IMG/VR virus record: IMGVR_UViG_3300009075_000007
Location: 1-40,552 of that record
From: a virus
Lineage: Duplodnaviria > Caudoviricetes
Direction: 5' to 3' (one strand)
Length of the DNA stretch: 40,552 nt
Below are positions 3-28,333 of the stretch, in pieces. Within the stretch, counting starts at the first letter, position 1; each line of letters opens with the position of its first letter. Made by a program: the position numbers and the translations under genes. Under the pieces are notes generated by a model, which worked only from the letters and a program-made list of their open reading frames with translations, was not told the DNA's origin and made no database searches.

Positions 3-3000
3 GGCGACCCACGCATCGCCGCGCCGGTCGACCCGAACCTCTGGGAGTCGTCGATCCTCGACGCCGGCTACGACGGTTACGTCAACCGCAGCAAGGGCAT
101 GGCTGTGGTGCTGGACGCCGACGTGCCGGCCACCTACGTCGGCGTGGACTACGCCGGCCCGAAGGTCGCTACGCCCGCCCCTGTCGCCCCGAGCCTGCTG
201 AAGCAGCCGCTGATGTCGGCCGAGATCGGCCCCGTCACGGCGGCGATCGCCGGCATCCCCGGTGCGCGCGTGCGCATGGGCACCCTCGAAGTGGCACAGG
301 CGAGCGTGCAGCAGGTCAACGCCGCGCTGTCGAGCGCCGGCCTCGGCGTGCAGATGAGCAAGCAGCGCGACGCAGCCGAGCGGTTCAATACCGAGCAGGT
401 CGAGAGCAACCGCGTGCCCAACTGGAAGGGTCGCGAGAAGTTGGTGCAGATGCCGCTCGATCAGTTCCTCGCGCTGTCCGAAGACGGGACAGACGAGACC
501 AAGGCGAAGCGCGTCGCCGGGATCATGGAGCGCGGCGAACAGTTCGAGACGTTGCCCTACATGATCGTCGAGAGCGACGGGCGGGTGACTGGCCACGAGG
601 GCCGCCACCGTGCCCGCTGGCTGCTGGCGAACGGCTACACCACGATGCCGGTCGTCCTGAAGTCGGCGAACATCCGCTGGAGCGAGCAGGCCGACCCGAA
701 CCGCTTCGACTACATCGACGACAGGGACTGGCCGAAGACCCTGCGCGCGCAGAAGGGCGCACCGGACGAGCGCTACACCGCCCCGTTCCCCGTCGCCCGC
801 GAAGACGCGATGCAGCCCTACCCGAGCGAGCCGGGCATCTCGAAGAGCACCGCGCGCACCGACATCACCAAGAGTGCGCAACGTGGCGGGATCACGGGCA
901 CCTCGGCGTTCAAACGGTGGTCGAAAGGCCTCCCCGTCGTCAACATCCGCGACAAGCACACCTTCAGGACTGGCGAAGGGCTCATCCTCTCCGGCATGCT
1001 TCATGGGTCTCCTCGGGCAAAAAGTCTGCGCGCGTTTAGAGAGGGCGAGATCGGAACCGGCCGCTTTGGAAGCGCCAGCAACAATAGGCTCGGATGGCAT
1101 TTCACCGACAACGCGGCACAGGGGGCGGAGTACGCGCTGATGGTGGATGCTTACGACATGTCGGAGAGGGAGCAGGCCAGATTCGAGCGCGTCGCCGACG
1201 GGGAGATGCTTCGGTCTGGAGAGGGCGTTGTCGAGACCTTCATCCGGCTCGAAAAGCCGCTGGTGATGGCCGGCCGCCAGTACGGTCGCTTCATCGAAGG
1301 AAAGAGCGAAGACGTGTCTGCCCTGCGCGTGTTCATGCAGGACAACGAGCACGATGGGGTTATCGTTGACTGGTCGAACAACGGCGCTCGCTCAACGCTG
1401 GCCGCTTCTTATATGGCGGTCTACGACGAGATGCTCGACAGATGGATCGACAAGTACAACGCTCTTTCCAAGAAGGACAAAACCGAAGTCAGAAACGCTG
1501 AAGCAGAGTTTCTGGCGTGGGCCGATGGCGGCGCGAGTTCTGAGTATCCGGCCGCAGCTATCGACACGCTTGTCGACAAACTCACTGACGGAACCAACCC
1601 TTTTATCGGCCGCTACCGGGCTTCTCCTGTCGGTGAAGACGTTCTCGAATATCTTGGCCTTTCTGTTGGTGTTCGGGAGTCCCTCCACAATCCCTTCTTC
1701 GCCGGCACTGAAGGCAGCCTCTGGGTGGTCGTCACGCCGGAAGCGGCAGGCCGTGGGCAGATCAAGTCCGTTCTCAACAACGGAAAATTCACCGACTCGC
1801 CGGACATCTACAAGAGCGCGCCGCGCTGGGGTGGCTTCTACAGCGAGCTCGCGAAGCAGGTCGACGCGCTGCCGACGAACAGCTCGGTGGCGACCGGCTG
1901 GAAGCAGGCGATCAAGAGTCTGACGCAGAAGGGTGTGAAGGTCGACGAGATCGAATGGTCTGGTGTGAACGAATGGCTCGACCTGCAGCCGGCGAAGGTG
2001 ACGAAGCAGCAGGTGCTCGACTACCTCGCGCAGAACGGGCCCACGGTCATCGAAACGGTGAAGAGCCCGCCCAACCTTCTCGCGGAAGAGCTGGAGTGGG
2101 ATTCGCTCGACGTCCGCGACGTGGATGACCCGCTGCCTGTCGCCACCAGCTTTCCGAGTGTGAGGCCCGATCGGATCTTCGAGGCGAAGCGTGACAACGG
2201 CCAGTTCGCTCGCTACGAGTGGGACTCGGTAGACGTCGGCGACGAAGACGACACGGTTTTCGAGCCGCACACTGTTGTCGAATACTTCCCTGACGGCGAG
2301 ACCCCTTGGCTTGTCTATTCCGGCCCACCGGAACGGATGAACGAGGAAATCGGTCGCTTTATCGGCGGCCGTTTTGCCCGCGAGAAAGGTGGGCTGCCCA
2401 AATTCAGCAAGTACACCGTCACCGGCGGCAATGACTACCGTGAGCTGCTGATTCGGCTGCCGTCCAAAGTAGATGCCGATGGTCTGCCTGCAGGCTATCA
2501 GGTGATCGACGAGGGCGACGGCCGGTGGAGCTTCAAGACGCCGACTCGTTCAAGCCGTATATTCACGTCGCGGGAAGACGCGGTCTCGGGCGCGCTGCAC
2601 GCGATGCGCAGGGAACGAGAAAACGGCGACGGCATTCGGAACGACTTCACCTACCCGGCACACTGGGAAGAGCCGAACGTCGTTGCGCACGTTCGATTCA
2701 AGGAACGCATGGACGCCGCCGGCGCGCGCGTGCTGTTCATCGAGGAAGGCCAGAGCGACTGGGCGCAGCAGGGCGGCGAGGAGGGGTTCGTCAACCCGGC
2801 AATAAAAGAAACGCGCCAAGCGATGTACGACCGCGTGCTCGACGCCCAGTATCGCGTCGAAGAAATTAAAGATTCTTTCTCGCTCACCTCCGATGACAAC
2901 GAGCTAACCAAGCTGGAGCTCGCTTACGCGGAGGCACGCGAGGAGGAGATCGCTGCTCGACGCGAGTGGGAGGAGTTCTCCGGGCGCGCCGGCGAGATCC

Positions 3001-6000
3001 CACTGGCCCCCTTCGTTGCGAAGCGCGAGTTCGCGGTCTTCAAGGACGGCGTCGAGGTCAAGGCGGCGAAGGACGGCCGCACGCAGCGCTACGGCACGAT
3101 GGAGGAGGCGCAGGCTGCGGCCAAACGTCTCGGTGGCGAAGCGCGCGACCTTGGCTACGGGGAGAACACGCCGGCGTGGGTCTCGCTCATGCTCAAGCGC
3201 ATGATCGGCTGGGCCGTGGAGAACGGCTTCGACAAGATCGCGTGGGCGACGGGCGCGCAGAGCGCCGAGCACTACAAGCTGGAAAAGCACGTCAGCAAGT
3301 TGGAGTGGATGGAGAACGAGAAAAAGCTCTTCGGCTATGACCCGAAGACCGAAATGATGACGGTCTCCGAGGCCGAGGTGACCCGCGAAAAGCTTCCGAA
3401 GTACATCGGCAAGGAGTTGGCCGAGCGGCTGGCCGGGCAGAAGAAGGACACCTTTGGCGTGCGGACGCTGGAAGGCGACGGCCTCGTCGTTGGTGGCGAA
3501 GGCATGAAGACGTTCTACGACAGCGTCTTGCCGAACATCGCCAACGAGGTGCTGCGAAAGCTGAAGGCAGAGACGAAGGTCGGCGTGATCGAGGTCATGC
3601 CGGATCGGCCTGTGACGACGCTGTCGGTGATAGAGGTCGACCCGAGTAATGACCCGGAGGCTGGCCAATCGTTGATCGCCGAAACAGACGAGATCGAAGG
3701 GGCCCGCTTTTTCGTCGTCAACGAAAACGGTTATCGGCTCGCCAACGCCGCCACGCGAGAGAAAGCAGAGGCCGAGCTCAAGCGCCGCCAGCGCCAGTTG
3801 AGTGCGAAGTTCGTCGGCCCGCAGCTCGGCTTCGAGATCACGCCGCAGCTAAAGGCGGCGGCCGAGCGCGGCCTGCCGCTGTTCAGCAAGCAGCGCTGGT
3901 TCGAGGGCTCGAAGGCAGTCGACGCGAACGGCGAGCCGCTGGTGCTGTACCACTCGACCGCGTCCGACGTCGACGCCTTCAAGACCAACTTCGGCGAAGA
4001 CGAGTACCGGCGCTTCGGTGCGCATCTCGGCAGCATCGAGGCGGCCGAGAATCGGATCGGGATCAAGGCTGCAGAAGACGAGGTCAACGGCGAGCGCGGC
4101 GGCAACGCGGGCGTGAACGTGATGCCCCTGCACCTGCGCGCCAAGAACCCGCTGCGGCTCGACGAGAACCGCACCGGACGGTGGGGCGTGGACGACATCA
4201 TGCGCGCCGTCATCGAGAAGGCCGAGGCGGGCGACCTGCCCGAGATCCCGGCCGACAGCAAGTTCGTCGACGACTACTACGAAGACGCCTCGCGCCTCGG
4301 CGGCAAGCGATCCAAGGTCTGGCAGGACGTCAACGACTGGCGTCCCGGCGAGCGCAGCGACGCCTTGCGCACATGGTTGGAGTCGCTCGGCTACGACTCG
4401 ATCGTCTACGCCAACGAGTTCGAGGGTGGTGGTGACAGCTACATCGCCTTCCGCCCCGAGCAGATCAAGAGCGCGATCGGCAACGAGGGCACCTTCGATC
4501 CGAAGGACGCCCGGATCACGAAGAGTGCCGACCGCAGCCAGTTCCTCGGCGCGCTCACGCCGGCGCAGGAGGCGGCCCTGCGCACGGCCGGCGCGATCGT
4601 GCAGCCGAAGACGTGGCAGGAGCGCTGGGCGACCTACAAGACCGGTCTCGGCCAGCGTGCCATTCAGGGCATCTTCGACCAGTTCGATCCGATCAAGCAT
4701 CTCGACCAAGAGGCCTACATGCAGGCCCGCATGTCGCGCGGGTCGGATGGCACGCTCGAAGCGGCGCTGCTCTATGGTCGCCCGAAGCTGGTCGACGGCG
4801 TACCCAACGTCGACATCAACGATCGCGGCTTCGCCAACGTGCTGGCCGACCTCGGCGCTGACACCGACCGCTTCTTCTGGTGGGTGGCCGCCAAGCGCGC
4901 GCAGCGGCTGAAGGCCGAGGGGCGCGAGAACCTGCTCACCGATCAGGACATCACCGCCCTGCTGACGCTCAACGAGCCGGTGGCCACTGACCCCGCGACC
5001 GCCGGCCGGGCGGCGCGCTTCTCGCGCGCGCTGGCCGAGCTGAACGAATTCAATGAGGCGATCCTGCGCATCGCACTCGAAAGCGACCTGATCGACAAGG
5101 ACGGTTACAACCTGTTCAAGGATCAGCCCTACGTCCCGTTCTACCGTGTGATGGAGGAAGAGGGCGGCATTCGCGGGCCGGGATTCGGCGGCGGACTGAC
5201 CAGCCAGTACATGTCGAAGAAGCTCAAGGGCGGCAGCGAGGCGCTGAATCAGGATCTGCTCGCCAACGTCCTCCTGAACTGGTCGCATGTCCTGTCGGCC
5301 AGCGCGAAGAACCGCGCCGCCGTCGCCACGATGGGCGCTGCAATGCAGGTCGGCGCGGTGCTGCAGGTGCCAGCGAGCACGCCGAAGTCGGTGCGGATCC
5401 GGGTCGAGGGGAAGGAGCAGCATTTCCTCGTCCACGACCCGTACCTGCTGGAAGCGATCAGCGCGATCGAATACGCCACGCCCCGCTGGTTCAAGCCCTT
5501 CTCGACCGTCAAGCGGTGGCTCACGATCGGCGTGACGGCGAGCCCGTCATTCAAGATCCGCAACCTGATCCGCGACTCGGTGCAGGCGATCGCCACGGGG
5601 CAGCTGAAGCCGAACCCGATCGGCAACGTGGCGCAGGGATTCAAGGCCAGCGCGAAGTCGACCCAGACCTACGCCTCGATGCTCGCCTCGGGCGGCATGA
5701 TCCGCTTCGGGTCTCTGGTCGAAGGCGACCGCGCGCACCACGTCCAGAGGCTGATCGACAAGGCCGGCCGCAAGGCACACATCCTCGACGAGCCCAGCTG
5801 GAAGAAGCTGCAGGGGCAGATGGTCACCCTGATCGAGGCCTACAACGAGCTCGGCGACCGCAGCGAGAACGTCAACCGCAACGCGCTCTACGAGCAGCTG
5901 CGCGCTAAGGGGGTCAGCCACCTCGAAGCGGCGTTCATGGCGCGCGACCTGATGGACTTCGCCATGGGCGGGACGTGGCCCGTGGTGCGATTCCTGACGC

Positions 6001-7037
6001 AGTCGGTGCCGTTCCTCAACGCCCGCCTGCAGGGCCTCTACAAGCTCGGCAGGTCGGCCAAGGACGACCCGGCGCGGGTCGGCTATGTCGTCGGCGCGGT
6101 CGCACTGGCCAGCCTCGCCCTGCTGCTGATGTACGGCGACGACGAGGACTGGAAGAAGCGCGAGGACTGGGATCGCGACACCTACTGGTGGTTCAAGATC
6201 GGCGACGTCGCCTACCGGATCCCGAAACCGTTCGAGATCGGCGCGATCGGCACGATCGCCGAGCGGACGTGGGAGCTGATGTTCGACAAGGAGATGACCG
6301 GCAAGCGCTACGGTCGCCGCACGCTCGAAATCATCACCGAGCAGTTCGCGATGAACCCGGTGCCGCAGATCGTCAAGCCGATGATCGACCTCTACGCCAA
6401 CCGCGACAGCTTCACCGGGCGCGCGATCGAGAGCATGGGCATGGAGCGCCGGCGGCCTGAGGACAGGGCCAGAGCGAGCACCAGCACGATCGCGCTCGCG
6501 CTTGGGCAGCTGGGCCTGCCGAACCCCGCGCAGCTCGCCAACGCCCGCTATGAGGCTCTGAGCCCGGTGCAGATCGATCACCTCGTTCGCGGCTACTTCG
6601 GCTGGCTCGGGACGGCCATCACGGCCGGCCTCGACTACGGCCTGCGTCCGATGAGCGACCGGGGCGCGCGGCCGGAGATGCGGCTGAAGGATGTCTTCCT
6701 CGCCGGCAGCTTCGTCGAGACCTTGCCCGCGAACAGCTCGCGCTACGTCACCGAGATGTACGAGCAGGCTCGGCAGGCGCAGCAGTTCTGGGCCAGCTAC
6801 CGGGACGCGGTGAAGTTCGGCGACACCGCGCGAGCGGCCGAGCTGATGGCCGAGAACCGCGAGCAGCTGGTGAAGGCGCGCAGGCTGTCGGGCTTCACCG
6901 ATGCTGGCGGGCAGCTCAACGAGCAGGTGCGCAGGATCGAGGCCAGCAGGAGTTTGTCGCCGGAGACGAAACGCAAGATGATCGATGCACTGGAGCAGCG
7001 CCGGAACCAGCTGGCGATGCGGGCAGTGGCACCGTAA
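3..7037 (+). CDS. Giant polyvalent protein, 5'-truncated: ParB-like domain, two ART-PolyVal-like domains, an 'EEGQSDW' domain and C-terminal LPD38; probable internal virion/ejected protein
   Basis: Frame is open from nt 3 (GDPRIAAP...ILDAGYDGYV), so the real start is probably upstream of the window. ParB-like 'VTGHEGRHR'; ART-like 'HGSP..GWHFTDN..HDGVIV..QIKS' and 'LYHST..LRAKNPL..GYDSIVY..PEQIKSAIGN'; LPD38 'DWDRDTYWWFKIGDVAYRIPKPFEIG'. Confidence 0.88.
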   Translation, partial: GDPRIAAPVDPNLWESSILDAGYDGYVNRSKGMAVVLDADVPATYVGVDYAGPKVATPAPVAPSLLKQPLMSAEIGPVTAAIAGIPGARVRMGTLEVAQASVQQVNAALSSAGLGVQMSKQRDAAERFNTEQVESNRVPNWKGREKLVQMPLDQFLALSEDGTDETKAKRVAGIMERGEQFETLPYMIVESDGRVTGHEGRHRARWLLANGYTTMPVVLKSANIRWSEQADPNRFDYIDDRDWPKTLRAQKGAPDERYTAPFPVAREDAMQPYPSEPGISKSTARTDITKSAQRGGITGTSAFKRWSKGLPVVNIRDKHTFRTGEGLILSGMLHGSPRAKSLRAFREGEIGTGRFGSASNNRLGWHFTDNAAQGAEYALMVDAYDMSEREQARFERVADGEMLRSGEGVVETFIRLEKPLVMAGRQYGRFIEGKSEDVSALRVFMQDNEHDGVIVDWSNNGARSTLAASYMAVYDEMLDRWIDKYNALSKKDKTEVRNAEAEFLAWADGGASSEYPAAAIDTLVDKLTDGTNPFIGRYRASPVGEDVLEYLGLSVGVRESLHNPFFAGTEGSLWVVVTPEAAGRGQIKSVLNNGKFTDSPDIYKSAPRWGGFYSELAKQVDALPTNSSVATGWKQAIKSLTQKGVKVDEIEWSGVNEWLDLQPAKVTKQQVLDYLAQNGPTVIETVKSPPNLLAEELEWDSLDVRDVDDPLPVATSFPSVRPDRIFEAKRDNGQFARYEWDSVDVGDEDDTVFEPHTVVEYFPDGETPWLVYSGPPERMNEEIGRFIGGRFAREKGGLPKFSKYTVTGGNDYRELLIRLPSKVDADGLPAGYQVIDEGDGRWSFKTPTRSSRIFTSREDAVSGALHAMRRERENGDGIRNDFTYPAHWEEPNVVAHVRFKERMDAAGARVLFIEEGQSDWAQQGGEEGFVNPAIKETRQAMYDRVLDAQYRVEEIKDSFSLTSDDNELTKLELAYAEAREEEIAARREWEEFSGRAGEIPLAPFVAKREFAVFKDGVEVKAAKDGRTQRYGTMEEAQAAAKRLGGEARDLGYGENTPAWVSLMLKRMIGWAVENGFDKIAWATGAQSAEHYKLEKHVSKLEWMENEKKLFGYDPKTEMMTVSEAEVTREKLPKYIGKELAERLAGQKKDTFGVRTLEGDGLVVGGEGMKTFYDSVLPNIANEVLRKLKAETKVGVIEVMPDRPVTTLSVIEVDPSNDPEAGQSLIAETDEIEGARFFVVNENGYRLANAATREKAEAELKRRQRQLSAKFVGPQLGFEITPQLKAAAERGLPLFSKQRWFEGSKAVDANGEPLVLYHSTASDVDAFKTNFGEDEYRRFGAHLGSIEAAENRIGIKAAEDEVNGERGGNAGVNVMPLHLRAKNPLRLDENRTGRWGVDDIMRAVIEKAEAGDLPEIPADSKFVDDYYEDASRLGGKRSKVWQDVNDWRPGERSDALRTWLESLGYDSIVYANEFEGGGDSYIAFRPEQIKSAIGNEGTFDPKDARITKSADRSQFLGALTPAQEAALRTAGAIVQPKTWQERWATYKTGLGQRAIQGIFDQFDPIKHLDQEAYMQARMSRGSDGTLEAALLYGRPKLVDGVPNVDINDRGFANVLADLGADTDRFFWWVAAKRAQRLKAEGRENLLTDQDITALLTLNEPVATDPATAGRAARFSRALAELNEFNEAILRIALESDLIDKDGYNLFKDQPYVPFYRVMEEEGGIRGPGFGGGLTSQYMSKKLKGGSEALNQDLLANVLLNWSHVLSASAKNRAAVATMGAAMQVGAVLQVPASTPKSVRIRVEGKEQHFLVHDPYLLEAISAIEYATPRWFKPFSTVKRWLTIGVTASPSFKIRNLIRDSVQAIATGQLKPNPIGNVAQGFKASAKSTQTYASMLASGGMIRFGSLVEGDRAHHVQRLIDKAGRKAHILDEPSWKKLQGQMVTLIEAYNELGDRSENVNRNALYEQLRAKGVSHLEAAFMARDLMDFAMGGTWPVVRFLTQSVPFLNARLQGLYKLGRSAKDDPARVGYVVGAVALASLALLLMYGDDEDWKKREDWDRDTYWWFKIGDVAYRIPKPFEIGAIGTIAERTWELMFDKEMTGKRYGRRTLEIITEQFAMNPVPQIVKPMIDLYANRDSFTGRAIESMGMERRRPEDRARASTSTIALALGQLGLPNPAQLANARYEALSPVQIDHLVRGYFGWLGTAITAGLDYGLRPMSDRGARPEMRLKDVFLAGSFVETLPANSSRYVTEMYEQARQAQQFWASYRDAVKFGDTARAAELMAENREQLVKARRLSGFTDAGGQLNEQVRRIEASRSLSPETKRKMIDALEQRRNQLAMRAVAP

Positions 7038-22606: not shown

Positions 22607-22718
22607 AATCGGGCGCTGGCGAGGTTTTTGGGGAGGGGCCTTTGTGATGACCTTAGCCGCCGCTGTGCGCGCGCCACGGGCCTGCAATTCTTTGCTGTCA
22701 ATCCTGACATCTGTAACG

Positions 22719-22750
22719 AAAAAAGGGGAGCCGGCTCGCGCCGGCCCCCC
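22719..22750 (-). terminator. Rho-independent terminator closing the leftward early operon
   Basis: Minus strand GGGGGGCCGGC-GCGA-GCCGGCTCCCC followed by T6. Confidence 0.85.
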
Positions 22751-22752
22751 GT

Positions 22753-22968
22753 TCATTTGTCCAGCTCCAGCATCAACGCGTCGGCCAGTGCGACGCCGAT
22801 TTGGGCGAGCTTGTCCTGCTGGCCCGTACTGGTGGGCCAACAGTTCCCCACACCGGCGATCAGGCCTGCGGTCAGGTGGATGGCCGCATACTCGCGGCAG
22901 GTCAGCCCGTCGTCGCCCTCGACGTGAGGGTTCGGGAAGGCCGCGAAGTCACTCTTGCCGCGTCTCAT
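22753..22968 (-). CDS. Conserved small phage protein (AFP...GLTxREYAA...ADAL family)
   Basis: Recognisable motif; RBS AAGGAGG; ATGA overlap. Confidence 0.8.
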   Translation of the reverse strand: MRRGKSDFAAFPNPHVEGDDGLTCREYAAIHLTAGLIAGVGNCWPTSTGQQDKLAQIGVALADALMLELDK

Positions 22969-23393
22969 GCTTCCTCCTTGTGCCGGAATCCGGCTTTGAC
23001 GACCTGACCACAGGTCGGGCAGATGGGTTTGCGCCGGCGCGACGCGGCGAACTTGTAGACCGCAGAAGGGGAGACGTTGAACTTCGCGCCGGCGTCTCGC
23101 CCGGACGCGTCCGGGTGCTGCTCCCACCACTCGAACGCGCGCCGGGTGCGGAACTCCTCCTCTGCCTCTGGCGCTGCCTTCGACCACCAGCCGACCCGCT
23201 TCGCACCCTCCGCCGGCGGCACGTCCAGATCGTCAGGCACCTTGGTGTCGGCGTCGAAGATCTGGACGATGCAGCGGTCGGCGACCTTCCAGATGACCAG
23301 CCCTGCAGCGTCATCGGCTTCGAGCTCGACGGCGGCCCTCGCGCGCTGCCTCGGCGGCAGTACGTTCAGAAGTTTTTCGAGCATGGCGGTCAC
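22965..23393 (-). CDS. HTH plus CxxC hypothetical protein
   Basis: 'SGRDAGAKFNVSPSAVYK' then 'CPTCGQ'; start 23393 (GTG) or 23384. Confidence 0.7.
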   Translation of the reverse strand: MTAMLEKLLNVLPPRQRARAAVELEADDAAGLVIWKVADRCIVQIFDADTKVPDDLDVPPAEGAKRVGWWSKAAPEAEEEFRTRRAFEWWEQHPDASGRDAGAKFNVSPSAVYKFAASRRRKPICPTCGQVVKAGFRHKEEA

Positions 23394-23482
23394 CCCCAGA
23401 TCCAGATCGCCAGCACGACCGCCGACAGGATGATGGCCAGTGCGCGGGCGGGCGGCCGCGCGGATTGTTCGTCAGCGGACAT
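23390..23482 (-). CDS. 30-aa membrane peptide (absent from ORF track)
   Basis: MSADEQSARPPARALAIILSAVVLAIWIWG; RBS GGAGG; GTGA overlap. Confidence 0.6.
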   Translation of the reverse strand: MSADEQSARPPARALAIILSAVVLAIWIWG

Positions 23483-23606
23483 AGACCCTCCAAAGGGCGG
23501 CGAGGTGTTCGAGCAGGTCTTCGTCGGACGCGACGACCGTGAACAGGTAGACGAGGATCACGACCGTGACGACGGTCAGGATCCAGTCACTCAGATTTTG
23601 GGGCAT
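23472..23606 (-). CDS. 44-aa membrane peptide (absent from ORF track)
   Basis: MPQNLSDWILTVVTVVILVYLFTVVASDEDLLEHL...; RBS AAGGAG. Confidence 0.65.
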   Translation of the reverse strand: MPQNLSDWILTVVTVVILVYLFTVVASDEDLLEHLAALWRVYVR

Positions 23607-23817
23607 CCCCCTTCTCCTTGTTTTGCTCGCGTCGTAGCAGCGAGCGACAGTTGAGCAGCGCGCGCGGGTCGCTGGGGGTCGTCGGCACGATCACGATCGC
23701 GCCACCGTGCGGGGCGTAGCAGTGGAAATGCCGCGCCCCGCGCTCGACCCGCCAGCCGGCGGCCTTGAACTCCTTCAGCAGGCGCGCGACGTCACGGTCG
23801 CTCGCCTTCGAGGTCAT
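23587..23817 (-). CDS. HicA-like toxin/RNase-fold protein
   Basis: 'GWRVERGARHFHCYAPHGGAIVIVPTTPSDPRALLN'; 76 aa; ATGA overlap. Confidence 0.7.
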   Translation of the reverse strand: MTSKASDRDVARLLKEFKAAGWRVERGARHFHCYAPHGGAIVIVPTTPSDPRALLNCRSLLRREQNKEKGDAPKSE

Positions 23818-24110
23818 GATGTCTTGCGAGCCGAGACCCGCACCATGTCGTACGGAGCACCGTGCTTGGTGTGCGCCGCAACCAGCTGCCTGCTGGGCTC
23901 GAACTTGGCCGCGATCGACTGCCAGTCGATCGTTGCGCGGCCGTCGCAGTGCGAGATGGCAGCCCGGTACGTCGCACCCTCGACGACGGGCAGGCCCGAG
24001 TCGATGAGCAGCGATTCGAGTGCTTCCTGATCGGCCTTCAGCGAGGCGATCGTGGCCTTGATCTGGCCGATGCGGTCGACTGCGACCGCGAGGGGAAGGG
24101 TCATGTCCAT
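23814..24110 (-). CDS. Conserved phage hypothetical protein with N-terminal coiled coil
   Basis: 'VDRIGQIKATIASLK...EG..YRA.IS...DWQSIA...PSRQLVAAHT'; RBS GGAG. Confidence 0.8.
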   Translation of the reverse strand: MDMTLPLAVAVDRIGQIKATIASLKADQEALESLLIDSGLPVVEGATYRAAISHCDGRATIDWQSIAAKFEPSRQLVAAHTKHGAPYDMVRVSARKTS

Positions 24111-24150
24111 TGTGTCTCTCCAGACTGTTCGCCGCGAGTGACGCGGTCGT

Positions 24151-24202
24151 TGGACTCATCAGTGCAGGGACTACCTGCAGACCGGCTCGCGCCGGTTTCG
24201 GC
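24151..24202 (-). ncRNA. Type II hammerhead ribozyme HH1
   Basis: GCC GAAA CCGGC-GCGA-GCCGG UC^ UGCAGG-UAGUC-CCUGCA CUGAUGA GUC; predicted cut 24180/24179; stem II has a mismatch. Confidence 0.88.
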
Positions 24203-24751
24203 TTAGAAAATCTTGTCTTCGCGGTTGACCGGCACGTCCCATGTCTTGCATAGCGCGCTCACCTTGGCGACAAGGAAGTCGAGCTTCGCCGACACGGTCA
24301 CGAGCTCCGCCTCCTGCGCCTTCAGCGCCGCCTGCAGCGCCTCGAACCGCTGGGTGGCGACAAGGCTGCGGCCGGCCTCTTCCACCCATTGAACGGGGAG
24401 CGGCTTGGGCGCAGGCGTCGGTGCCTGCACTCGGGCAGCCCGTTCGCGCCGCTTCGTTTCCAAGGCGTAGCGGGTGCGCTGGGCGTTCGATCGCGAGAGG
24501 GCGGACTCGAATGCCCTGTCGCCGAAGAGCGTGATGACGTGCCGTCGATTGGCGAAAGCGACCGTCCCGTCCTTCGTCTCCAGAACGCGGGTCAGCTGGA
24601 TCCCGTACCGCTCCGCGAACGCGACCGGATCGCGCGCCACGTTGGTGTGCCCGAGCGCCTTGCGGATTTGTCGGATCGTCACTTCCGATTTTTCGTCTGG
24701 CCTGCCGTCGAGGTGCTCGTCGAGGACTTCCAAGAACATGTCGAGGTTCAT
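24203..24751 (-). CDS. Hypothetical protein with C-terminal coiled coil
   Basis: ATG 24751 (MNLDMFLEV) overlaps upstream TGA. Confidence 0.75.
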   Translation of the reverse strand: MNLDMFLEVLDEHLDGRPDEKSEVTIRQIRKALGHTNVARDPVAFAERYGIQLTRVLETKDGTVAFANRRHVITLFGDRAFESALSRSNAQRTRYALETKRRERAARVQAPTPAPKPLPVQWVEEAGRSLVATQRFEALQAALKAQEAELVTVSAKLDFLVAKVSALCKTWDVPVNREDKIF

Positions 24752-24966
24752 GTCGTTTCCCCTTGCGCCAACGGCACGTTGCGCCCGTCGACGAAACGGT
24801 AGTTGACCGGCGCGTCGGTCTCGACGACGCCCGTGTCGATGACCGCCATCCAGCGGCCCATCAACTCGTCGGCCGAGGCCTGCGCCTCTTCGCGGGTCGC
24901 GAACACGAGCGCGTTGGTGTACAGCTTGCCAGTGCTGTCCGTTGAAACACCGGGTTTGAAGTTCAT
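24748..24966 (-). CDS. Conserved small phage protein
   Basis: 'NALVFATREEA...RW..V...VVETDAPVNY'; RBS GGAG; start 24966 or 24969. Confidence 0.75.
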   Translation of the reverse strand: MNFKPGVSTDSTGKLYTNALVFATREEAQASADELMGRWMAVIDTGVVETDAPVNYRFVDGRNVPLAQGETT

Positions 24967-25004
24967 CATCAGCTCCATCAGGTTGACCGCGAGTGACGCG
25001 GCTT

Positions 25005-25055
25005 TGCATCATCAGTGCAGGCACTACCTGCAGACCGGCTTGCGCCGGTTTCGCG
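25005..25055 (-). ncRNA. Type II hammerhead ribozyme HH2
   Basis: CGC GAAA CCGGC-GCAA-GCCGG UC^ UGCAGG-UAGUG-CCUGCA CUGAUGA U GC; predicted cut 25033/25032. Confidence 0.88.
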
Positions 25056-25589
25056 TTATTCGACGACCTTCCAGCCGCCGGGCAGCCCGTTGCCCCACGA
25101 GGAGCAGCGCTCGAAGCGGGTCGACCGGCTGCCGTCGGCCTTCAGCAGACGCACGACGAGGGTGCCCGGAGTAGGCAGGCCCCATTTCTTGTTGCTTGGC
25201 ACCGGGTCGCCTTCGACGAAGACCTCGACGATGCCGTAGAGGTTGCGGATGCTGTAGCCGCCGGCGCGTGCGAAGACCTTCTTGCCGACCATCGGGTGGC
25301 CGTTGGCGACCTCAAGGCGGGCCTTGCGAGCGAGATCCCATGCCTCGCTCATCTCCTGCTTCTGCGCGTCTATGCGACTTTTGTACGTGGCGTTGACTTC
25401 GGCCTCGACGGCGCGACTCGTGATGCCGATCTGCTCTCGCAGCGCATCCATTTGCCGGTTCAGATTTTCGAGCCGGGCGCGGGATAGAACGTCGTAGTGC
25501 TCCCTGCGTTCGCTTTGAAGGGCCTGCAACGCTCGATACGCGGCGCGGGCTTTATCCTCCAACTCGGTAACTTCTTCGGGGGTGAACAT
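25056..25589 (-). CDS. Hypothetical protein (coiled coil plus beta domain)
   Basis: RBS GGAGAGG; sits exactly between HH4 and HH2. Confidence 0.8.
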   Translation of the reverse strand: MFTPEEVTELEDKARAAYRALQALQSERREHYDVLSRARLENLNRQMDALREQIGITSRAVEAEVNATYKSRIDAQKQEMSEAWDLARKARLEVANGHPMVGKKVFARAGGYSIRNLYGIVEVFVEGDPVPSNKKWGLPTPGTLVVRLLKADGSRSTRFERCSSWGNGLPGGWKVVE

Positions 25590-25613
25590 GATTGCCTCTC
25601 CAGTTGATTGCGT

Positions 25614-25730
25614 CCCATACCCTCCCCTCGGCGGTCACACAGGGCGGGGTTGTTCGCCGCCATGCGCCCAGTCGCCACGATGGGATTCAGGAGAGGGTTT
25701 CGGCCCGTCGCCACGGGCCTCGTCAGTGGG
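25614..25730 (-). ncRNA. Type I hammerhead ribozyme HH4 with 60-nt insert in stem III
   Basis: CCCA CUGACGA GGCCCGU-GGCG-ACGGGCC GAAA CCCUCUCCU-(60 nt)-AGGGGAGGG UA^ UGGG; predicted cut 25618/25617. Confidence 0.85.
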
Positions 25731-26738
25731 TCAGTCGAGCAGCGCCAAGGCAGCCTTGAACGCTTCGGTCTTCAGCGCGTCGCCGGCACCGAACTCGGCG
25801 CTGTCCATCCGGTTGTCCGGGCTGCGCGAGCGCTGGTAGTGGTCGACGTACTCGGTCACGCCGTTCACCAGCCCCCACGCGGTGCCGGCCACGCCGGGCA
25901 GGTTCGCACCGCGACCCTTGCCGCCGAACAGCGCGAGCACGGTCTGGTAGCCGATCGAGTCGACGACCTTGCTGTTGCGAACGATCTGCGCCGCGTTCTG
26001 CGGTGCCGCGACTCCGCCCATCAGCTGCAGCGTCAGCAGCTGCGCCTCCTCCGGGCTGATCTCGCGCTTGGCCAGCTCGCGCGCCTGCGCCATGAAGCGA
26101 GCGAAGGCGACCGGCGCGACGCCGAGCTGGCGCTTGACCTTCGCCTCGTCGAACACGCTGCGGTGGCTCACCTTGACCATCGAACCGTTGGTCTCCTGCA
26201 TCGCAAACCCGAGCGTGTTCGAGCAGACGACGCGCTCGCTCACGCCCTTGGCGATCGTGTTCATCGAACCGTCGCACGCGGTCGCCAGCAGCAGCCGCGC
26301 GCCAACGAAGTCGTTCCGCACGACGTTGTCGCCAGCGCCAACATCGGCCTGCGCCCAGAACTTCTTGCCCCCGTGCAGCACGCCCGCCGTGGTCATCCTG
26401 AACCCCGCCTCGCGGATCAGGTCGGCGAAGAAGCTCAGCACCTCGCGCGGCTGAACGACCTGAAACGAGTCGCTGACGACCGCGAGCGGGGCCTTGGTGT
26501 CCGAGCGAAGCAGGACGTGGTAATCAGGCCAGACGGTCGGCGCGGCGACGTCTTCGCGCGAGGTGGCGAACCGCACCTTGCTGCGCTGGATCGTCCAGTC
26601 CATCCCGGCGGCCTTCTCCCAGACTTCGATCGGGGCATCGTCGGGCATCGCCTCGCCGAGGCCGTGCCAGATCGCGTTGCGGTCGCCGGTGAATGCCATC
26701 GCGGCGCGGCCCTTGGAAAAATCGATTGCGTGTGCCAT
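25731..26738 (-). CDS. DUF932 (TIGR03299-like) phage/plasmid protein
   Basis: 'WHGLG...AGMDW', 'VQPREV', 'TAGVLHGGKKFW', 'CDGS', 'RVVCSNTL', 'GTAWGLVNGVTEYVDH'. Confidence 0.92.
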   Translation of the reverse strand: MAHAIDFSKGRAAMAFTGDRNAIWHGLGEAMPDDAPIEVWEKAAGMDWTIQRSKVRFATSREDVAAPTVWPDYHVLLRSDTKAPLAVVSDSFQVVQPREVLSFFADLIREAGFRMTTAGVLHGGKKFWAQADVGAGDNVVRNDFVGARLLLATACDGSMNTIAKGVSERVVCSNTLGFAMQETNGSMVKVSHRSVFDEAKVKRQLGVAPVAFARFMAQARELAKREISPEEAQLLTLQLMGGVAAPQNAAQIVRNSKVVDSIGYQTVLALFGGKGRGANLPGVAGTAWGLVNGVTEYVDHYQRSRSPDNRMDSAEFGAGDALKTEAFKAALALLD

Positions 26739-26778
26739 TTGGGGTCTCCCTGTTGGCGTACCGGGAGCGGCCCGGCGT

Positions 26779-26835
26779 TGACTCATCGGTGCGAGAGCGA
26801 CTCGCAGACAGGCCCGCGTGGGGCCTGTTTCGTCA
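26779..26835 (-). ncRNA. Type II hammerhead ribozyme HH3 with CCGAUGA core variant
   Basis: UGAC GAAA CAGGCCC-CACGC-GGGCCUG UC^ UGCGAG-UCGCU-CUCGCA CCGAUGA GUCA; all three stems fully paired; predicted cut 26807/26806. Confidence 0.85.
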
Positions 26836-27060
26836 TCACCGGTTCAGCGCCCGGTGCCAGCTGGCCAGATACTCGGCTTCCCGCTGCGCCGTCGACGGGT
26901 CGTAGAAGGGCCGGCCTGTGAGGAACTCGCCGCCGGGCCCGGTCACCGTGTACCGGCGGGAATCCCTGTTGCCGTCGGTCTCCCAGACCTCGACGACGAA
27001 CGGGAAGGCCGGGCCGGCGCTATGGGCCTGAATGCCGGCGTTGTTCGATAGATGTCCCAT
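26836..27060 (-). CDS. Hypothetical protein
   Basis: ATG 27060 with RBS AGGAG. Confidence 0.7.
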   Translation of the reverse strand: MGHLSNNAGIQAHSAGPAFPFVVEVWETDGNRDSRRYTVTGPGGEFLTGRPFYDPSTAQREAEYLASWHRALNR

Positions 27061-27061
27061 G

Positions 27062-27355
27062 TCACTCTCCTGTCGCTTCGGTGATGGCCGTGAGCAGCCG
27101 TTCGCGCTGCGAGAAGTTGCCAGCAAGCCGAGCGTATTCCGCCGCCTCTCGCAAGGCGGTCAACATGATCGGAGCGGCCCGCATCAGCCGCGCGTTCGCC
27201 TTGGCCTCGTACCAGCCGGCCATCTTGTCTTCACGGGCCAGTACCTTGACCGCCGCGATCTGTTCGCCACTGGGCGCGTCGATGCGGGAGCTATCCCGCT
27301 GCGTGTCCGACACGTTGACGTGTACGGCCCAAGGGCCGGGGGTGTGCTTGTCCAT
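27062..27355 (-). CDS. Conserved phage protein (HTPGPW...ANARLxxAAP family)
   Basis: Both motifs present; RBS AAGGAG. Confidence 0.8.
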   Translation of the reverse strand: MDKHTPGPWAVHVNVSDTQRDSSRIDAPSGEQIAAVKVLAREDKMAGWYEAKANARLMRAAPIMLTALREAAEYARLAGNFSQRERLLTAITEATGE

Positions 27356-27367
27356 GTCAGTTCTCCT

Positions 27368-27538
27368 TCAGCGCAGCTTCAAAGCCTGCAGGATGTCGAA
27401 GCGGAGCTGGCCAGCGCCGAGCTCTCTGTACAGCGACTGCGCGTCGTTCTTGGCCACGGCATCGAGCACCTTGCGCAGCGTCCGTTCGAGGCTGTTGCGT
27501 TCGGCGACGAGCTTGTTGTATTCGGAGCGGGGGATCAT
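27368..27538 (-). CDS. 56-aa hypothetical protein
   Basis: ATG 27538 with RBS GGAG (MIPRSEYNKL...). Confidence 0.65.
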   Translation of the reverse strand: MIPRSEYNKLVAERNSLERTLRKVLDAVAKNDAQSLYRELGAGQLRFDILQALKLR

Positions 27539-27552
27539 GTCAGTCTCCGGTT

Positions 27553-27816
27553 TCAGAGGGTGATGGTGATTTTCTTGACGAGGCGCAGCGGGTCGCCGGT
27601 CTCCGAGGAGACAACGCCACGGTGATCTGCTTCCCACCCGTCGACGGTGGCCGTGTCGTACACGTTCACGTTCGCCTCGGCGATTTTGTAGTATTTGCCC
27701 CAGTCGGCCTTGACCCGCTTCGCGGCAGCCTTGGCGGCAGCCTCGGGGGTGGCACCGTAGGCCCACGACGAGCCGGCACCGATGAACACGATGCCGCAGA
27801 AGTCCTTGTCTTTCAT
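27553..27816 (-). CDS. Hypothetical protein, first gene of the early operon
   Basis: ATG 27816 with RBS GGGAGG. Confidence 0.75.
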   Translation of the reverse strand: MKDKDFCGIVFIGAGSSWAYGATPEAAAKAAAKRVKADWGKYYKIAEANVNVYDTATVDGWEADHRGVVSSETGDPLRLVKKITITL

Positions 27817-28085
27817 GTCTGCCTCCCAGCAGTGCGATGCGACAGTTGCATCTGGCAGCGCCCCGTTGGGCGAGACGCTGCGGGCTGCAATATCAGGGTG
27901 TTTCCAAAGATCCAAGAGGCGTTATCTCCGCCTCTACCCTCGCGCTCCCCGATCAGTTGGCTCCGAATCGGCTCTCAGCGGTCTGGCCAGTGCGCCTCGG
28001 GTTTCCCCCTAGATCAGCGTCCAGCTGGTGCCCCTTTTGTATCCCGCTGGCCCTTCGCGGCCCGGCTAGTAGCGCCGGAGACCAA

Positions 28086-28125
28086 AGCATGACACATTGT
28101 GTTGACACGCTACAACTCCTTGATT
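28086..28125 (-). promoter_or_regulatory. Putative early promoter with overlapping IHF-consensus site
   Basis: TTGTAG-18-CATGCT with extended TG; AATCAAGGAGTTG (28125-28113) fits WATCAAnnnnTTR; near-palindrome ACACA-T-TGTGT in the spacer. Confidence 0.55.
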
Positions 28126-28333
28126 TGTAAGGGAAATAATACTTGACTGAATCGTGCGGGTTTTACAGGGCCGCAATTTTGTGCCCGCCACGAGTTATGC
28201 CGGGCCCGTGGCCCTCGGTCTGTGCGTTGGCGCACACTGGCGGGCCTATTTTTGGGGCCCGACTTGCGCTATCGCCCCTCTCAGGGAAAATCTCGACTCG
28301 TACGCGCCCGAATCCCCTCTGAAGGAATGCTCT

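Follow-up and report, generated by a model that had tools for sequence, protein, structure and literature searches.

Four Hammerhead Ribozymes Probably Cut a Phage Operon mRNA between Its Genes

Hammerhead Motifs in the Intergenic Gaps

We analyzed the 40,552-nt IMG/VR virus record IMGVR_UViG_3300009075_000007 (Duplodnaviria; Caudoviricetes), the whole of which is hereafter called the window, and focused on the hammerhead ribozyme motifs within one of its operons. This operon comprises 14 small minus-strand genes running from position 27813 to 22753 and is flanked by terminase genes and a helicase gene. Four of its gaps are longer than 50 nt (97, 141, 86, and 92 nt), and each of these holds one hammerhead, in line with the original prediction that every sizeable gap is filled; the remaining nine of the 13 junctions are no longer than 14 nt. 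Based on sequence comparison, the four hammerheads probably cut a long minus-strand phage mRNA between genes, yielding messages of one or a few genes without any protein. In the order of transcription they are:

26779–26835, minus strand: HH3, type II, stems I/II/III of 6/4/8 bp, core variant U4C, predicted cut 26807/26806
25614–25730, minus strand: HH4, type I, stems I/II/III of 4/7/10 bp, found by the descriptor only, predicted cut 25618/25617
25005–25055, minus strand: HH2, type II, 2-bp stem II, U inserted after the core, predicted cut 25033/25032
24151–24202, minus strand: HH1, type II, 1-bp stem II, near copy of HH2, predicted cut 24180/24179

The presence of three type II motifs and one type I motif at these minus-strand positions, as first proposed, was confirmed by subthreshold Rfam matches, a hammerhead descriptor, and folding, and the four recomputed cleavage sites agree with those predicted before. 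The Rfam type II model (RF02276, gathering score 37 bits) matched all three type II motifs, at 24148–24203 (33.8 bits), 24998–25056 (33.0 bits), and 26772–26835 (29.3 bits), with E-values of 0.0009–0.013. However, none of them reached the gathering score, HH4 had no Rfam match, and a gathering-level scan of the window returned nothing. The model is narrow, as none of 27 array copies in three other viral loci (L378–L380, described below) reached its gathering score either. Across both strands of the 40.5 kb, the descriptor detected exactly these four motifs. In 60 dinucleotide shuffles, loose type II matches averaged 0.1 per window, and there were no type I or strict matches. Other ribozyme classes were found neither in the 19–31 kb region (Rfam, E-value up to 10) nor in 12 array loci (gathering level).

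The core examined was C3 U4 G5 A6 N7 G8 A9, G12 A13 A14 A15, and U16 H17. It is canonical in HH1, HH2, and HH4, and HH3 has the natural variant U4C, which is shared by other type II copies (6/188). The original description of a core with paired stems in each motif held, with three stems around the core and pairs adjoining it; stem II is, however, reduced to a single base pair in HH1 and to two in HH2, and HH2 reaches even two only if the U after A9 is counted as an insertion. In minimum free energy folds, stems I and III formed in each type II motif, and the full set of three in HH3 and HH4. Of 45 nt, HH1 and HH2 share all but two, both of which lie in loops, as noted before. HH3 begins 4 nt past a stop codon, and the start codon of the following DUF932 gene lies 44 nt beyond its core. 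It also carries a U at position 1.7 and an A adjoining stem II, as do 139 of 153 copies, and the two may form a Hoogsteen contact.

HH4 is a member of a type I family that is common in phages: 83 of 114 distinct pattern matches in IMG/VR are of type I. It contains a 3-bp pseudoknot between loop II and the tail, and its 59-nt stem III loop (25634–25692, minus strand) folds as an extended helix. Loop II/tail pairing of at least 3 bp was observed in 50 of 70 distinct type I relatives, whereas 500 re-dealings of the tails gave 30 on average and never more than 43; the count of 50 is, however, inflated by related sequences. For type II copies with a 4-bp stem II, no pseudoknot signal was detected (3.33 vs. 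3.35).

The same small hairpin occurs downstream of HH1 (24128–24145, minus strand) and HH2 (24987–25002, minus strand), ahead of the ribosome-binding site. Its loop could form 4 bp with loop I of HH2.

The gene segments and other features of the operon are as follows:

27900–28136, minus strand: noncoding leader of ~240 nt, 81% identical to positions 5212–5450 of the sister phage L002
27840–27895, minus strand: motif X, a hairpin of ~10 bp, a 4 × 4 internal loop, and 11 bp, upstream of the first operon gene; candidate RNase III site
26836–27813, minus strand: proximal block of four small genes, from motif X to HH3
25731–26738, minus strand: DUF932 (TIGR03299) gene, 335 aa, flanked by HH3 and HH4
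25056–25589, minus strand: gene of 177 aa, matching no known family, flanked by HH4 and HH2
24203–24969, minus strand: two overlapping genes of 73 and 182 aa, flanked by HH2 and HH1; the second is swapped in a related strain
22753–24110, minus strand: distal block of small coupled genes past HH1, including a 98-aa gene and a weakly HicA-like gene
22715–22750, minus strand: intrinsic terminator-like hairpin (11 pairs) with a T run, at the operon end

Phage and Operon Context

CheckV estimated the virus record to be 71% complete, and genes of the window include primase, helicase, terminase, and portal-like genes. Because the best terminase matches (50–55% identity) belong mostly to Xylella, Rhizobium, and Achromobacter phages, the host is likely a proteobacterium. 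Metagenomes from soil, wetland, and freshwater sediment contain DNA near-identical to the window, and none of the sequencing runs listed for it is of RNA. No close relative of the operon was found among cultured phages.

Gene layout and context suggest that the operon is expressed early. A sigma-70 promoter scan gave no promoter on the minus strand. The leader folds at about −85 kcal/mol and may act in antitermination or be some other structured RNA; one exact pattern searched over viral contigs matched just this phage and L002. As for the DUF932 family, the literature on its function yielded nothing except one preprint, accessible in part, concerning a plasmid copy (bioRxiv 2025.06.20.660599). 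Phage DSL-LC04 has a DUF932 gene without a hammerhead.

In the distal block, a 76-aa gene (23587–23817, minus strand) has a weak HicA-like match (E-value = 0.0015). Elsewhere in the window, the C-terminal part of a 2312-aa gene (99–7037, plus strand) matches a PHROG labeled as DNA methyltransferase.

A Sister Phage and Related Strains

Comparison with the 60-kb sister phage L002 revealed both conservation and replacement at the junctions. Its DUF932 protein is 84% identical to that of the window, and 8 of 13 tested operon genes have homologs in L002, one of them at another position. An HH3 ortholog (5909–5969) lies ahead of DUF932, with a canonical core and unchanged stems I and II; its stem III differs from that of HH3 and contains one mismatch. 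Among related strains, a 6-kb contig (run X5) shows 14 differences within a 3.3-kb part of the region, and the two that fall within HH2 represent a compensatory change in stem I (A-U to G-C at 25029/25019). In another contig (run X2), 367 other bases stand in place of 571 bases before HH1, and the joint, at 24200, lies on the edge of HH1.

Three copies of motif X were identified in L002 (5455–5520, 7027–7095, and 7866–7935): at the same leader site; directly past DUF932, at the junction occupied by HH4 in the window; and directly ahead of the 98-aa gene, which is 65% identical between the phages and is preceded by HH1 in the window. In other words, the same junction is occupied by a hammerhead in one phage and by a hairpin with a partial fit to RNase III sites in its close relative. 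Such a natural swap suggests that mRNA processing is the function under selection. The original prediction had likened the hammerheads to the RNase III sites of phage T7, and this analogy now gains comparative support from the hairpins at the two matching junctions of the sister phage.

The upper helix of motif X has 11 bp in all four copies, and the lower helix has ~10 bp with one bulge. This geometry fits the length rule for RNase III substrates given in the accessible text of PMC1540722, that is, about two helical turns with 11 bp from the cut to the terminal loop. Two pairs of the upper helix are altered on both sides between the window and L002. In a variant found in two runs (X8 and X10), one lower-helix U-G becomes U-A and one A-U is broken. 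When the offset of proximal-box position 2 was derived from the text of PMC1540722, with the direction of numbering inferred, position 2 was A-U on both sides in all four copies. Position 1 is G-C in the upper helix of all four copies, and in the lower helix of three, the other having G-U. At +9, U-G is present in all four copies; this may be the distal-box position at which RNase III sites have a U-G pair. The predicted cuts in the window are 27882/27881 and 27853/27852.

The RNase III box scan of both strands of the window also passed four other hairpins; thus, the fit of motif X is only moderate evidence. On balance, we lean toward motif X being a site for the host RNase III. It may instead be a protein-binding or stabilizing hairpin, a possibility that deserves serious attention, and it is improbable that it is a new self-cleaving ribozyme. 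No Rfam match was found, and inspection by eye revealed no fit to consensus features of the twister, twister-sister, pistol, hatchet, hairpin, or HDV ribozymes. Searches for homologs gave chance matches alone, both with a loose viral pattern (4 of 64 parts) and with one for metagenomes (5 of 64 parts), and a full viral scan (42 stretches) detected the hairpin solely in L002 and one near-identical contig.

Hammerhead Arrays in Other Viruses

A type II pattern matched 126 stretches in 27 of the 64 parts of IMG/VR. The type II counts are biased, since the seed pattern prescribed the triplet as well as some of stem I, and the copies cannot be treated as independent. Arrays were surveyed in 76 contigs with long flanks, after 7 same-contig loci had been dropped and one near-duplicate pair kept. 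At least two hammerheads are present in 36 of the 76 contigs and at least three in 19; in all 36 multicopy contigs, every copy lies on a single strand, and the median piece is 435 nt. The largest arrays are:

L378, 8432–13239: array of 10 hammerheads, one per gene, terminating at an SNF2 helicase gene
L379, 8620–12981: array of 9 hammerheads, one per gene, terminating at an integrase gene
L380, 6230–9724: array of 8 hammerheads, one per gene, terminating at an SNF2 helicase gene

The type II set comprises 188 distinct copies from 105 viral loci. A stop codon lies within 10 nt upstream in 146 of them (13% at random positions), and a Shine-Dalgarno sequence with a start codon within 45 nt downstream in 161 (17% at random positions and 9/188 on the antisense strand). 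The genes that follow are short (median 85 aa) and diverse: 148 genes fall into 129 clusters, and 17 of 112 scanned genes have a Pfam match, 2 of them to DUF932. Mixing of types I and II, as seen in the window, is uncommon, since a type II motif was nearby in just 1 of 80 other type I loci. DUF6011 genes follow a hammerhead in L378, L380, and L021.

Similar arrays were detected in two cultured Streptomyces phages, Amethyst (L381, 4206–7956), with six type II copies by the strict descriptor and seven by the relaxed one, and Marav (L382, 735–7686), with 8 and 11 copies, respectively, two of them back to back. Both arrays lie in the right arm and are absent from the annotated features. In either phage, one hammerhead is located directly ahead of an annotated Ocr-like antirestriction gene. 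Considering the arrays of up to 10 copies in IMG/VR and of 7 and 11 in the Streptomyces phages, four hammerheads in one phage is, by these counts, unremarkable.

In one further locus (L046), a long intergenic hairpin by a hammerhead pair, ~100 nt before a start codon and on the hammerhead strand, passes the RNase III box scan.

Proposed Mechanism

We suggest that a single transcript would start near 28.1 kb and run as far as the terminator (22.7 kb) and that the ribozymes would cut it during or soon after transcription. Cleavage at a type II site would leave two hairpins: that of stem III, carrying a 2′,3′-cyclic phosphate, right after the preceding stop codon, and that of stem I, carrying a 5′-OH, ~40–45 nt ahead of the next start codon. 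A short stem II may let the cleaved halves separate. After cleavage at HH4, the hairpins would stay on the DUF932 piece, and the next piece would begin with a 28-nt leader. A fifth cut, at motif X, would probably be made by the host RNase III, in which case the phage would mix self-cleavage and host cleavage. The expected pieces measure 1189, 585, 853, and about 1460 nt, preceded by one of about 1050 nt if cleavage occurs at motif X; recalculation gave the same three internal sizes as the original prediction.

5′-OH ends and terminal hairpins can stabilize RNA. Each piece would gain protected ends as well as a ribosome-binding site freed from its upstream neighbor, and swapped-in genes could then be expressed whatever their neighbors. 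Processing modules at the junctions would thereby make cassette swaps neutral for neighboring genes. A tentative extension is that the junction module itself is exchangeable in phage accessory operons, with hammerheads of either type or a hairpin cut by a protein filling the same slot and being swapped between close relatives. In its boldest form, which would require the improbable assignment of motif X as an undescribed self-cleaving RNA, ribozyme punctuation would free early expression from host RNases.

Evaluation of the Mechanism and Its Alternatives

The original proposal that the phage cuts its polycistronic mRNA into gene-sized units without protein is supported by the position, strand, and conservation of the motifs and by the anatomy of the 188 related copies. 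Several observations weigh against it. The Rfam scores of HH1–HH3 all lie under the cut-off, and U4C, as found in HH3, reduces hammerhead activity in vitro according to the accessible part of Perreault (2011, PMC3088659). A 1-bp stem II occurs in only one of 188 copies, HH1 itself, and a 2-bp stem II in nine including HH2. Pseudoknot pairing in HH1 and HH2 (3 and 4 bp) is within chance (shuffled means 3.3–3.9). At the junction that HH2 occupies in the window, ahead of the homolog of the 73-aa gene, L002 has no element. For the RNase III part of the mechanism, the upper helix of motif X has C-G and G-C at proximal-box positions 3 and 4 in all four copies, which leaves the E. coli preference for A-U unsatisfied, and G-C at position 4 lowers RNase III reactivity 14-fold, as stated in the available text of PMC1540722. 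RNase III-like hairpins are not enriched near the other arrays (19 sense vs. 23 antisense; 6 vs. 2 when a start site is included). A 2019 review (PMC6765202), in its accessible portion, describes the purpose of bacterial and phage hammerheads as undefined.

Because of their weak stem II, HH1 and HH2 are the motifs whose activity is least secure, and they may be slow. It is somewhat doubtful, but conceivable, that some copies, above all these two, are slow or dead remnants of a recent duplication, so that fewer than four cuts take place. Besides the 1–2 bp of stem II and the lack of a clear pseudoknot, the strands of stem II in HH1 are poorly matched, as if they came from two parents, and the accessible text of Perreault (2011, PMC3088659) reports that 4 of 18 consensus hammerheads were inactive. 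On the other hand, the same text describes a fast ribozyme with a 1-bp stem II, together with a pseudoknot; the cores of the copies in question are intact; an insertion like that of HH2 is found in 29 of 194 copies; and the change in stem I of HH2 is compensatory. A different explanation is that the motifs persist chiefly as short repeats that delimit exchangeable gene cassettes and act as sites of recombination, cleavage being a by-product. HH1 and HH2 are indeed near-identical direct repeats, the gene swap in the related strain ends on the edge of HH1, gene order and content are unlike those of the sister phage, and the downstream genes in other viruses are spread over almost as many clusters as there are genes. 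However, a DNA repeat needs no catalytic core, covarying stems, pseudoknot, or coding-strand placement, and HH4 is a different permutation without a repeat partner. In addition, no HH2–HH1 deletion joint was found in four DNA runs, whose contigs drop rare variants. We thus regard this explanation as unlikely.

Cleavage might also be a regulated step rather than constitutive maturation, lowering or timing downstream expression by decay or as a switch. Variants that cleave slowly (U4C, weak stem II) and the 59-nt insert of HH4 could permit such control, a role that was raised by Perreault (2011, PMC3088659, available in part), but there is no conserved sensor, the insert is seen in this phage only, and most copies are minimal and uniform, which makes this role quite improbable. 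Ligation of the pieces into circular or spliced mRNAs seems more improbable still. The 5′-OH and cyclic phosphate ends are chemically suitable for it, and the two ends of the HH2–HH1 piece could rebuild a chimeric hammerhead; however, stem II cross-pairing between these ends amounts to just 1 bp, and circles and spliced products were sought without success according to the accessible part of Perreault (2011, PMC3088659). Protein-free cutting of the operon mRNA between genes is therefore the reading that we prefer.

The value of these observations lies partly in the tests of hammerhead function that they offer. The swap in the sister phage is one such test, and the arrays of Amethyst and Marav are others, since in these cultured phages the question of function is open to mutation experiments. 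The exchange between hammerheads and RNase III-like hairpins is not general among the other arrays surveyed. We found no literature on this exchange or on hammerhead arrays in Streptomyces phages, subscription journals being mostly outside the coverage of the search.

Comparison with Known Systems

The closest known systems are the prophage clusters of Perreault (2011, PMC3088659). According to the available text, multiple hammerheads flank prophage genes, cleavage of three tandem arrangements (triple arrays) was shown both in vitro and in E. coli, and processing to operon- or gene-length mRNAs was proposed; the idea of operon-cutting hammerheads is not new, having been in print since 2011. 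Both there and in the window, co-oriented hammerheads with a short stem II surround single genes or short blocks of changing gene content, and the proposed role, the cutting of long phage transcripts, is the same. The window differs in having four hammerheads rather than the three of the tested arrays, in mixing types I and II, in the lack of a clear pseudoknot in its type II copies, and in the presence of a nonribozyme hairpin in the same operon. HH4 resembles the 83 distinct phage type I hammerheads from IMG/VR in its stem I/II layout and pseudoknot, with a stop codon before it and a ribosome-binding site after it, but its 59-nt stem III loop contrasts with the 1–23 nt of the other listed copies.

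The early mRNA of T7 is cut at five RNase III signals (PMC3867540, accessible in part). Like these signals, the predicted cuts in the window fall at gene junctions of a polycistronic phage mRNA, just ahead of ribosome-binding sites, and motif X shares with RNase III signals the 11-bp upper helix, the internal loop, and A-U at proximal-box position 2 on both sides. Unlike T7-type signals, motif X departs from the E. coli preference at two of the four proximal-box positions. The hammerheads would need no host enzyme and would leave 5′-OH and cyclic phosphate ends, whereas RNase III leaves 5′-phosphate and 3′-OH ends.

RiboJ is used as an insulator in bacteria. In this synthetic element, a hammerhead and a hairpin ahead of the ribosome-binding site give a defined 5′ end, which is also the arrangement expected at the junctions described here. 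Application of RiboJ in mammalian systems is described as well (PMC11334430). RiboJ is engineered and is placed as a single copy at the 5′ end, whereas the elements of the window are natural and intergenic, and their compact stop-ribozyme-ribosome-binding-site modules may represent ready-made insulator parts.

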